64,000 nt of DNA. It comes from Escherichia coli. Lineage in GTDB: Bacteria; Pseudomonadota; Gammaproteobacteria; Enterobacterales; Enterobacteriaceae. The first letter of the stretch is position 1, and the number at the start of each line of letters is the position of its first letter. Made by a program: the position numbers and the translations under genes. Positions 37,651 through 38,330 of the stretch are shown here, piece after piece. The notes beneath the pieces are model-generated. The model saw only the letters and a program-made list of their open reading frames with translations. It was not told where the DNA came from and made no database searches. The stretch lies in NCBI RefSeq assembly GCF_003334405.1, contig NZ_QOWM01000002.1. One strand, written 5' to 3'.

Positions 37651-37680
37651 AAAACCGACGCCAAAAGCGTCGGTTTTTTC
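37651..37680 (+). terminator. Rho-independent terminator after aaeB
   Basis: AAAACCGACGCCAAAAGCGTCGGTTTTTTC hairpin plus T-run. Confidence 0.65.
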
Positions 37681-37738
37681 ATGGCTATACTTAGCGATGC
37701 ACGGCAGAACTCGCCGCGAAACGTGACGGTGGCAACAG

Positions 37739-38011
37739 ATGAATATTTATACCTTTGATTTTGATGAGATTGAGAGTCAGGAGGATTTTTATCGTGACTT
37801 TAGCCAAACCTTTGGTCTGGCGAAAGATAAGGTACGCGATCTCGACTCACTATGGGATGTGTTAATGAACGATGTCCTGCCGCTACCACTTGAGATTGAA
37901 TTTGTTCATCTGGGAGAGAAAACGCGTCGCCGTTTTGGCGCGTTAATATTGCTGTTTGATGAGGCAGAGGAAGAGCTGGAAGGGCATTTGCGTTTTAATG
38001 TTCGTCATTAG
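37739..38011 (+). CDS. yhcO: Barstar-like (ribonuclease inhibitor family) protein
   Basis: 90-aa acidic [30 protein letters not shown]..., recognised as barstar family; no barnase-like ORF adjacent. Confidence 0.8.
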
Positions 38012-38012
38012 C

Positions 38013-38040
38013 GCAAAAAAAAGCCCCCGAACCGGGGGCA
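38013..38040 (-). terminator. Terminator hairpin after yhcN
   Basis: A8 run plus hairpin GCCCCCGAACCGGGGGC on the + strand, which is hairpin plus T-run on the - strand. Confidence 0.45.
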
Positions 38041-38066: not shown

Positions 38067-38330
38067 TTATTTGTACAGTTCAGCCGTAGCGTGCCAGGTG
38101 TCACCGCTACGAGCTTCAGTAATCTGGTAGGCCGTTGCGCCTTTCTCTTCCGCTTTTTTGTTCAGCATTTCACGCATATCCATTGGCGAAGACGCCACAC
38201 CACTTACGGATACGGTCCCGATTGCTTCACGATTTTGTGCTTGTGCAGCATCAATGGAGTCGGCAGCGAATGCACCGAAAGAGAGAACAGAAAGTACGCT
38301 TAATGCAGCAACAGTGGTTTTGATTTTCAT
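38067..38330 (-). CDS. yhcN: Small periplasmic stress-response protein (DUF1471/YdgH-BhsA family)
   Basis: 87-aa ORF from MKIKTTVAALSVLSVLSFGAFA signal peptide (ORF track extends 17 codons upstream). Confidence 0.8.
   Translation of the reverse strand: MKIKTTVAALSVLSVLSFGAFAADSIDAAQAQNREAIGTVSVSGVASSPMDMREMLNKKAEEKGATAYQITEARSGDTWHATAELYK

Follow-up and report, generated by a model that had tools for sequence, protein, structure and literature searches.

The gene yhcO of Escherichia coli belongs by family to the barstar-type ribonuclease (RNase) inhibitors and has no RNase gene at its side. Where does a solitary inhibitor gene come from, and what does its product do? These questions were addressed with the copy of yhcO that lies in a stretch of 64,000 nucleotides (nt) of E. 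coli DNA (contig NZ_QOWM01000002.1), termed here the window, which is the E. coli K-12 region yhdP-tldD-aaeR-aaeXAB-yhcO-yhcN-argR-mdh-degS-degQ. Comparison with related bacteria indicates with high confidence that yhcO descends from an operon that also encoded a barnase-type RNase, and the residues that served the contact with barnase are loosely constrained in YhcO. YhcO may now act on another partner.

The gene was located in the list of open reading frames (ORFs) as follows.

37739-38011, plus strand: yhcO, ATG start, 90 codons and a stop codon

The product is acidic (isoelectric point 4.48, 21 Asp and Glu against 10 Lys and Arg), has no signal sequence and is cytoplasmic. Residues 1-81 of the 90 match the Pfam family Barstar (PF01337) with an independent E-value of 2.4e-9 and a score of 37.5. 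YhcO is 100% identical to PDB entry 2CX6 and 77% identical to the Salmonella protein of entry 5F4C, both titled 'ribonuclease inhibitor Barstar', and is named 'barstar family protein' in RefSeq. The match to the Bacillus amyloliquefaciens barstar itself was marginal with phmmer (E 0.06-1). A single-sequence AlphaFold model was poor (predicted local distance difference test, pLDDT, 68.6) and was replaced by a model based on a multiple sequence alignment (pLDDT 96.3), which superimposes onto 2CX6 with a template modelling (TM) score of 0.99. The same model superimposes onto the barstar chains of 1BRS, 1B3S and 1BGS with TM scores of 0.77-0.81 and root-mean-square deviations of 2.0-2.6 Å, the values being about 0.80 and 2.0 Å for barstar in the barnase complex 1BRS. 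In addition to the profile match and the α/β fold, in which three parallel strands form a sheet that packs on helices, YhcO possesses the DxxxD signature of helix 2 (D36-S-L-W-D40); the family features that it lacks are a cognate RNase and the full set of barnase-contact residues. No NCBIfam model matched YhcO, and a PADLOC scan of YhcO, the Serratia RNase and the Serratia inhibitor (see below) returned no defence-system model. By family, yhcO is a genuine barstar-type RNase-inhibitor gene, inhibition itself being a prediction from sequence. The gene, its family and its structure were already known; the operon history and the relaxation of the contact surface described here, on which a literature search found no paper, are an incremental addition.

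A cognate RNase was sought at several levels. With barnase as query, the best tblastn match over the window had an E-value of 3.2, as expected by chance. The RNase part of the Serratia operon had no match at the DNA level in 5426 complete E. coli genomes, whereas the barstar part of the same operon found yhcO in 4986 of them. At the protein level, searches of Enterobacteriaceae plasmids and of phages brought up no barnase-type RNase; the plasmid matches that were obtained came only from Bacillus, Clostridium and two mislabelled Proteus chromosomes, and were rejected. The yhcO region was present in all 5426 genomes, in 5419 of them with at least 80% of the 1.1-kb query. The original prediction, drawn from the letters of this stretch, had described a 90-residue acidic ORF of the barstar family without a partner ribonuclease, flanked by aaeB and yhcN and by no toxin-like ORF. 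This description was borne out: the Pfam profile, the identity with 2CX6 and the superposition on barstar agree on family and fold, the searches for the RNase were negative in the window and the genomes, and the neighbours are those of the ORF list and of the MG1655 annotation.

A profile-free HMMER search with YhcO against 1.84 billion representatives retrieved only 112 relatives. The Xenorhabdus homologue (45% identity) is encoded 4 nt downstream of the gene of a 156-residue RNase of family PF00545, and this pair directly follows yhdP-CN_hydrolase-tldD, which is the chromosomal neighbourhood of yhcO. Eighty loci, one genome per species, were collected with the peptide pattern [FK][GV]xNLDAL[WY]D. 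An intact ORF of a barnase-type RNase was present in 76 of the 80, ending -17 to +32 nt before the start of the inhibitor in 75 cases; one of the remaining four loci is cut by the end of the contig and three are without an intact RNase. The 77 RNases analysed are 48-60% identical to mature barnase, start with a hydrophobic export signal and all retain K27, E73, R83, R87 and H102 of barnase. The order of genes falls into four arrangements.

Yersinia, Rahnella, Rouxiella and Hafnia paralvei: tldD-aaeR-aaeXAB-Aldedh-RNase-barstar
Serratia: aaeB-RNase-barstar
Citrobacter koseri, Leclercia and two metagenomic Enterobacteriaceae: aaeB-Aldedh-barstar-yhcN-argR-mdh
Salmonella, Klebsiella and E. coli: aaeB-barstar

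The Aldedh proteins, which are aldehyde dehydrogenases, are 72-91% identical across the first and third arrangements. In Salmonella (locus L090, about 3900-3960), about 30 nt upstream of yhcO (gtttctggaagtgaaacctctgcat...) match the 3' end of Aldedh of Citrobacter and Leclercia, and this stretch would be the scar of the Aldedh deletion. The shared gene order, anchored by aaeB and Aldedh, argues that yhcO is the half that survives of an ancestral operon for an RNase and its inhibitor. The gene is very probably the positional orthologue of the inhibitor gene of an ancestral Aldedh-barnase-barstar unit, which lost its RNase gene by deletion in the ancestor of the Escherichia/Salmonella/Klebsiella/Citrobacter group. 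The earlier suggestion that yhcO may be the remnant of a lost toxin-immunity pair is well supported as regards its origin, through this positional orthology, and homologues in other species do co-occur with an RNase, in the 76 of 80 loci counted above. From the export signals, the lost partner is predicted to have been a secreted enzyme like barnase, with a Sec signal, rather than the kind of toxin classically carried by mobile toxin-immunity cassettes.

Several genomes have preserved stages of such a loss. In Edwardsiella ictaluri (L052, 7849-7995), only the last 49 codons of the RNase gene are left; in Hafnia psychrotolerans (L029, 7790-7995), scattered fragments of it remain; and in Chimaeribacter arupi (L026, about 7973-7996), the last seven codons ('KHFIRME*') alone follow Aldedh. 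The barstar gene is intact and its motif canonical in all three. A second, independent orphan was found in Sodalis sp. dw_96 (P0281; L095/L096, 5001-5270), where the order is aaeXAB-Aldedh-barstar-darP-pmbA with no RNase within 10 kb. Its contact motif is strongly degenerate (...GDSNLDELWQTVTH..., including D39Q), and as the sole protein with a deviant motif in the sample of 73 described below, it had been predicted to be an orphan beforehand. Nothing above chance was found when the regions in front of yhcO in E. coli, Salmonella, Citrobacter and Leclercia, and in front of the Sodalis gene, were searched for remnants of the RNase.

The fate of the inhibitor after loss of the RNase was examined in the segment that faces barnase. 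In the complex, barstar contacts barnase through Tyr29, Asn33, Leu34, Asp35, Asp39, Thr42, Gly43, Trp44 and Glu76 (PMC4207830, Table 1). The corresponding segment of YhcO was aligned to barstar and 77 RNase-linked homologues.

37820-37876, plus strand: codons 28-46, equivalent of the barnase-binding loop and helix 2; D36 (37844-37846), W39 and D40 (37856-37858) are kept

The columns of D36 and D40 are invariant in alignment A1. YhcO retains L35, D36, W39, D40, E75 and E79, and is derived at the other positions of the contact segment, namely D30, K31, V32, D34, S37, M43, the inserted N44, D45 and V46. Thus, Tyr29, Asn33, Thr42, Gly43 and Trp44 of barstar correspond to D30, D34, M43, N44/D45 and V46 of YhcO, and Gly31 is replaced by Val. 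As the retrieval pattern covers the motif, its invariance in the 80 loci is partly circular, and residues were therefore counted in an independent sample of 73 cluster representatives, obtained by word matches to the Yersinia pestis inhibitor. The orphans were represented by 84 unique Enterobacteriaceae sequences, filtered on a C-terminal motif. The counts are given below in barstar numbering, for the independent sample and then for the orphans.

F30: 72 of 73; orphans K, R, N, Q or S
G31: 72 of 73; orphans V in 82 of 84
N33: 73 of 73; orphans D in 74 and N in 8 of 84
D35: 73 of 73; orphans D in 84 of 84 (D36 of YhcO)
A36: 72 of 73; orphans S in 51, T in 27 and A in 6 of 84
W38: 73 of 73; orphans W in 84 of 84 (W39 of YhcO)
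D39: 72 of 73; orphans D in 64 and E in 20 of 84 (position 40 of YhcO)
T42: 73 of 73; orphans M in 56, T in 10, I in 9 and V in 9 of 84
G43: 69 of 73; orphans variable, with a one-residue insertion

Outside the contact segment, YhcO is mostly highly conserved among the orphans. The pattern of variation was compared with that of the paired inhibitors of Yersiniaceae, which are more diverged than the orphans (mean identity 0.73 against 0.81). Sites variable in the orphans only are concentrated in residues 28-46, with 8 of 19 against 4 of 71 elsewhere (p 3e-4); after removal of the positions of the retrieval pattern, the figures are 4 of 10 against 4 of 71 (p 0.007). The contact residues are kept where the RNase is present and loosened where it is absent, which indicates that the contact surface is under stringent constraint because the RNase is present. 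A new fixed interface had been read from the first 6 orphan sequences; it was abandoned for a relaxed interface when the 84 sequences showed most of the derived residues to be variable.

Position 33 (residue 34 of YhcO, codon 37838-37840) is polymorphic within E. coli. The window encodes D, and the cluster P0007, which comprises 654 sequences, carries the ancestral barnase-contact residue, N.

Between genera, dN (nonsynonymous divergence) of yhcO ranges from 0.09 to 0.4 and dS (synonymous divergence) is above 1, saturated or undefined; where the ratio ω can be calculated, it is roughly 0.05-0.11. The RNase-linked orthologues yield similar values (ω 0.08-0.13). The ORF is intact in all genera examined (Escherichia, Salmonella, Klebsiella, Citrobacter and Leclercia). 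Intact frames and strong purifying selection argue that yhcO is not a dead relic. In relative-rate counts, 11-19 changes were specific to the orphans against 4-7 to the paired orthologues, depending on the outgroup, the p-values of single triplets ranging from 0.004 to 0.3. The neighbouring TldD gave symmetric counts (33-39 against 25-30).

The head of the ancestral unit may also have been conserved. Two features lie between aaeB and yhcO.

37651-37679, plus strand: intrinsic terminator of aaeB, a hairpin with a U-run, from direct reading; folding energy -16.9 kcal/mol, z -5.6
37684-37693, plus strand: GCTATACTTA, putative -10 element of the sigma-S type, just after the aaeB terminator and 45 nt before the yhcO ATG

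The terminator was missed by a consensus scan, probably because its T-run can pair with an upstream A-run; it is predicted to set the aaeXAB transcript apart from yhcO. The sequence GCTATACTTA occurs once in the window, against 0.04 times expected by chance, and is close to the sigma-S -10 consensus. A scan with the sigma-70 consensus found no promoter upstream of yhcO. The same element is located ahead of Aldedh in Citrobacter, Leclercia, Yersinia aleksiciae, Rahnella and Chimaeribacter. In Serratia, it comes after aaeB, at a distance of about 240 nt from the start of the RNase gene downstream, and in Salmonella it lies ahead of yhcO. It is probably the ancestral promoter of the Aldedh/RNase/barstar unit, which today would drive yhcO directly. 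The putative element fits the published listing of yhcO as RpoS-dependent in strain EDL933 (PMC2907692). The gene is also acid-induced (PMC2270276) and activated by LldR, its function being given as unknown in 2023 (PMC10272880). In Salmonella, deletion of the barstar-like gene STM3363 increased swarming and left the number of flagella unchanged (PMC4534456). By the gene order of locus L090, STM3363 is the orthologue of yhcO, and its phenotype weakly hints at a role independent of barnase.

It is proposed that an ancestral chromosomal operon of Enterobacterales, directly downstream of aaeXAB, comprised a sigma-S-type promoter, Aldedh, a gene for a secreted barnase-type RNase and barstar. A deletion in the common ancestor of Escherichia, Salmonella, Klebsiella, Citrobacter and Leclercia would have removed the RNase gene; the dehydrogenase gene would also have been lost in Escherichia, Salmonella and Klebsiella, leaving the inhibitor gene beside the aaeB terminator and behind the old -10 element. 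After the loss of the RNase, the contact loop and helix evolved fast to their present loose constraint; L35, D36, L38 and W39 have been kept, as have an acidic side chain at position 40 and the helix E75-E79, which is acidic too. YhcO would be a small, cytoplasmic, acidic protein that, in the manner of barstar, plugs a basic cleft in which a partner protein binds nucleotides or nucleic acids. This partner would differ from the ancestral barnase, and could be a protein of the cell itself or an RNase toxin of another kind. To the reading that YhcO now acts as an acidic plug or nucleic-acid mimic on such a shifted target, we assign a probability of roughly 0.45-0.5. It is a tentative and rather doubtful extension that YhcO was exapted after the RNase deletion as a sigma-S-controlled cytoplasmic factor with a new partner, its acidic helix mimicking nucleic acid, possibly in connection with swarming; if true, this would document an enzyme inhibitor that outlived its enzyme and gained a new cellular role.

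The retained D36-x-x-x-D40 signature of Imm-Barstar, together with W39, E75 and E79, would also be expected if YhcO were a stand-alone immunity protein, neutralizing RNase toxins of the barnase family or BECR fold that arrive from other bacteria by contact-dependent inhibition (CDI), Rhs/type VI secretion system or bacteriocin-like routes. In polymorphic toxin systems, immunity proteins of the barstar type accompany the toxins Tox-Barnase and Ntox21 (PMC3482391), and a CDI locus of Pseudomonas encodes a CdiI with a barstar domain (PMC4725963). Barnase-type RNases are encoded by many gut and soil Enterobacterales, the strong purifying selection on yhcO is compatible with such protection, and the variable contact residues could reflect diversification in an arms race. 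However, F30, G31, N33, A36, T42 and G43, which are nearly universal in company of the RNase, have been lost or vary among the orphans, 24% of which have E in place of D39; as the contact residues are no longer conserved, protection against the RNases of competitors is somewhat disfavoured. Moreover, the enterobacterial RNases are exported by means of signal peptides, with, as we infer, no known route into the cytoplasm of another cell. Barnase-type genes were not found on Enterobacteriaceae plasmids, in phages or, at the DNA level, in the 5426 E. coli genomes; yhcO resides in a housekeeping neighbourhood instead of a toxin/immunity island, and PADLOC had no match for YhcO. Stand-alone immunity is considered possible, although rather unlikely.

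Two further explanations dispense with an outside toxin. The gene might be a functionless relic that has not yet decayed and is transcribed by accident from the old promoter, as could be suggested by the missing partner gene, the degraded contact motif of the orphans and the lack of a reported function as of 2023 (PMC10272880). Loss of the RNase with retention of the inhibitor has also recurred, in Sodalis, Chimaeribacter, Hafnia psychrotolerans and Edwardsiella ictaluri, but the RNase is expected to go first in any case, because a cell that lost the inhibitor before the RNase would die. The ω values of about 0.05-0.11 instead of about 1 largely refute this explanation, which is highly improbable in view also of an ORF kept intact in five genera despite saturated synonymous sites, the presence of yhcO in 5426 of 5426 E. 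coli genomes, the high conservation of YhcO over most of its length beyond the contact segment and the swarming phenotype of the Salmonella deletion (PMC4534456). Even less credit is given to a cognate barnase-type RNase encoded elsewhere in the E. coli genome or pan-genome, from which YhcO would protect. Barnase and barstar genes need not adjoin; they are separated by a spacer of 597 nt in Chryseobacterium (L078). Nevertheless, no barnase-like sequence was found in the 64-kb window; the RNase part of the Serratia operon is unmatched at the DNA level in the 5426 genomes in which its barstar part finds 4986; none was found at the protein level on Enterobacteriaceae plasmids or in phages; and a strictly kept partner should have preserved the contact motif, which is relaxed. 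Features of a type II antitoxin were also looked for in YhcO, and neither a DNA-binding domain, the Barstar domain being the only one, nor an adjacent toxin was found. Type II antitoxins pair with a cytoplasmic toxin, whereas the ancestral partner of YhcO carries an N-terminal hydrophobic export signal.

Several points weigh against a shifted target. D36 and D40 correspond to the two largest hot spots of barstar, and their retention would also be compatible with a YhcO that still inhibits barnase-type enzymes, though with lower affinity. The variability of the contact segment could have arisen by diversifying selection of the kind seen in immunity proteins instead of by relaxation. The independent sample of 73 is the sole control for the circularity of the motif counts, and the conservation of the orphans at residues 69-80 is itself partly circular owing to the C-terminal motif filter. 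The ω values are rough because dS is saturated. A neighbour-joining tree, in which the Enterobacteriaceae orphans form one clade with a long stem next to the paired inhibitors linked to aaeB, carries no support values. The orthology of STM3363 to yhcO rests on gene order. Finally, a literature search turned up neither a study of the function of yhcO in E. coli nor data on RNase inhibition or binding by YhcO.

Compared with the B. amyloliquefaciens barstar (1BRS chain D, PF01337), YhcO is likewise cytoplasmic and acidic, with the same fold and length. Both have the helix-2 sequence L-D-x-L-W-D, in which Asp35, Asp39 and Trp38 of barstar are D36, D40 and W39 of YhcO, and an acidic helix 4, with Glu76 and Glu80 corresponding to E75 and E79. 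The two proteins differ in that YhcO is only about 20% identical, that no barnase is encoded in its genome region and that its inhibitory activity is predicted only. The closest known system is the RNase/inhibitor operon of Enterobacterales, such as the pairs of Serratia, Rahnella, Xenorhabdus and Y. pestis (P0231, 'ribonuclease inhibitor' at NCBI), of which yhcO is the positional orthologue: it lies downstream of aaeXAB (and Aldedh) and points in the same direction, and the same sigma-S-like -10 element heads the unit. The inhibitors of these operons are 50-57% identical to YhcO and very similar in the C-terminal half. They differ by following an intact RNase at -17 to +32 nt and nearly always bearing the F-G-x-N-L-D-A-L-W-D...T-G motif, whereas yhcO has no RNase and a derived, variable motif.

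The orphan immunity genes of cdiI, rhs and colicin systems, including the Imm-Barstar genes of Zhang et al. 2012 (PMC3482391), resemble yhcO as inhibitors without a toxin that carry the DxxxD signature. In contrast, yhcO stands outside toxin/immunity arrays and mobile islands, is a core gene inherited vertically across the family, and its lost partner would be an enzyme secreted through a Sec signal instead of a contact-delivered toxin tip. The gene does not fit the typical orphan immunity gene of polymorphic toxin systems. The orphans of Sodalis, C. arupi, H. psychrotolerans and E. ictaluri share with yhcO the locus, the deletion or pseudogenization of the RNase and the intact inhibitor ORF. 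They differ as younger events, three of which keep the canonical motif; with D39Q, the Sodalis protein has gone further than that of E. coli.

The locus thus amounts to a natural experiment, leading from an intact barnase-barstar operon through pseudogenized RNases to a lone inhibitor throughout a family. It makes two questions approachable in E. coli: what keeps an inhibitor gene that has no partner, and which barstar residues serve barnase only. As a modest practical upshot, annotation alone should not make yhcO a working barnase inhibitor.

RNase-barstar pairs were also encountered outside this locus. Those of Bacteroidota (L033, L035, L051, L057, L071, L078, L082 and L085, from Niabella, Chitinophagaceae and Chryseobacterium) and of a Leptotrichiaceae genome (L055) have inhibitors 34-38% and RNases 44-61% identical to the enterobacterial ones, which suggests cross-phylum transfer. 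The genes of the Chryseobacterium pair L078 are those 597 nt apart. The pairs of Erwinia, Pantoea and Mixta (L036, L038, L041, L061, L067, L068, L076 and L084) adjoin neither tldD nor aaeXAB, and their inhibitors are 31-42% similar to YhcO, less than those of Yersiniaceae; they may represent a different insertion site or lineage. A protein of 255 residues (P0214; L005, metagenome contig, 629-1396) combines a C-terminal barstar domain with an unannotated N-terminal region of 170 residues; this fusion was dropped as context evidence, the 1.5-kb contig offering no usable context. Aldedh upstream of the RNase is split into two overlapping pieces or genes in Y. pestis (L018, 5881-7313), Rouxiella silvae (L046, 3894-5329) and L086 (207-1617), which are probably frameshifted pseudogenes. 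In Sodalis sp. dw_96, a large gene with a ToxA_N domain lies 3 kb downstream of barstar on the other strand.

The search for yhcO in E. coli genomes yielded 5432 places, one of them plasmid-borne. A copy of yhcO was also met on the 354-kb E. coli plasmid NZ_MG591698.1 (328211-328480, 98.9% identity, hit H46), and presumably belongs to a chromosomal segment captured by the plasmid. The matches of YhcO to 'plasmids' were mostly mislabelled chromosomes or chromosomal segments, and were set aside.

In the window, yhcO is flanked upstream by aaeB on the same strand and downstream by the convergent yhcN. No toxin locus, toxin-tip/immunity array or mobile element was found in the surrounding aaeXAB, yhcN, argR and mdh, and the same housekeeping context is found in Salmonella, Klebsiella, Citrobacter and Leclercia. 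One further feature separates yhcO from yhcN.

38023-38039, no strand assigned: GC-rich hairpin between the convergent yhcO and yhcN; folding energy -15.1 kcal/mol, z -3.6

On the minus strand (38039-38023), a T-run follows this hairpin, which was identified as the yhcN terminator by the terminator scan; on the plus strand, an A-run precedes the hairpin. The yhcN ORF spans 38067-38381 on the minus strand (104 residues) when read mechanically, and 38067-38330 (87 residues) in RefSeq. The yhcN locus contains two tandem paralogues in Salmonella, Klebsiella and Leclercia, and one gene in E. coli.

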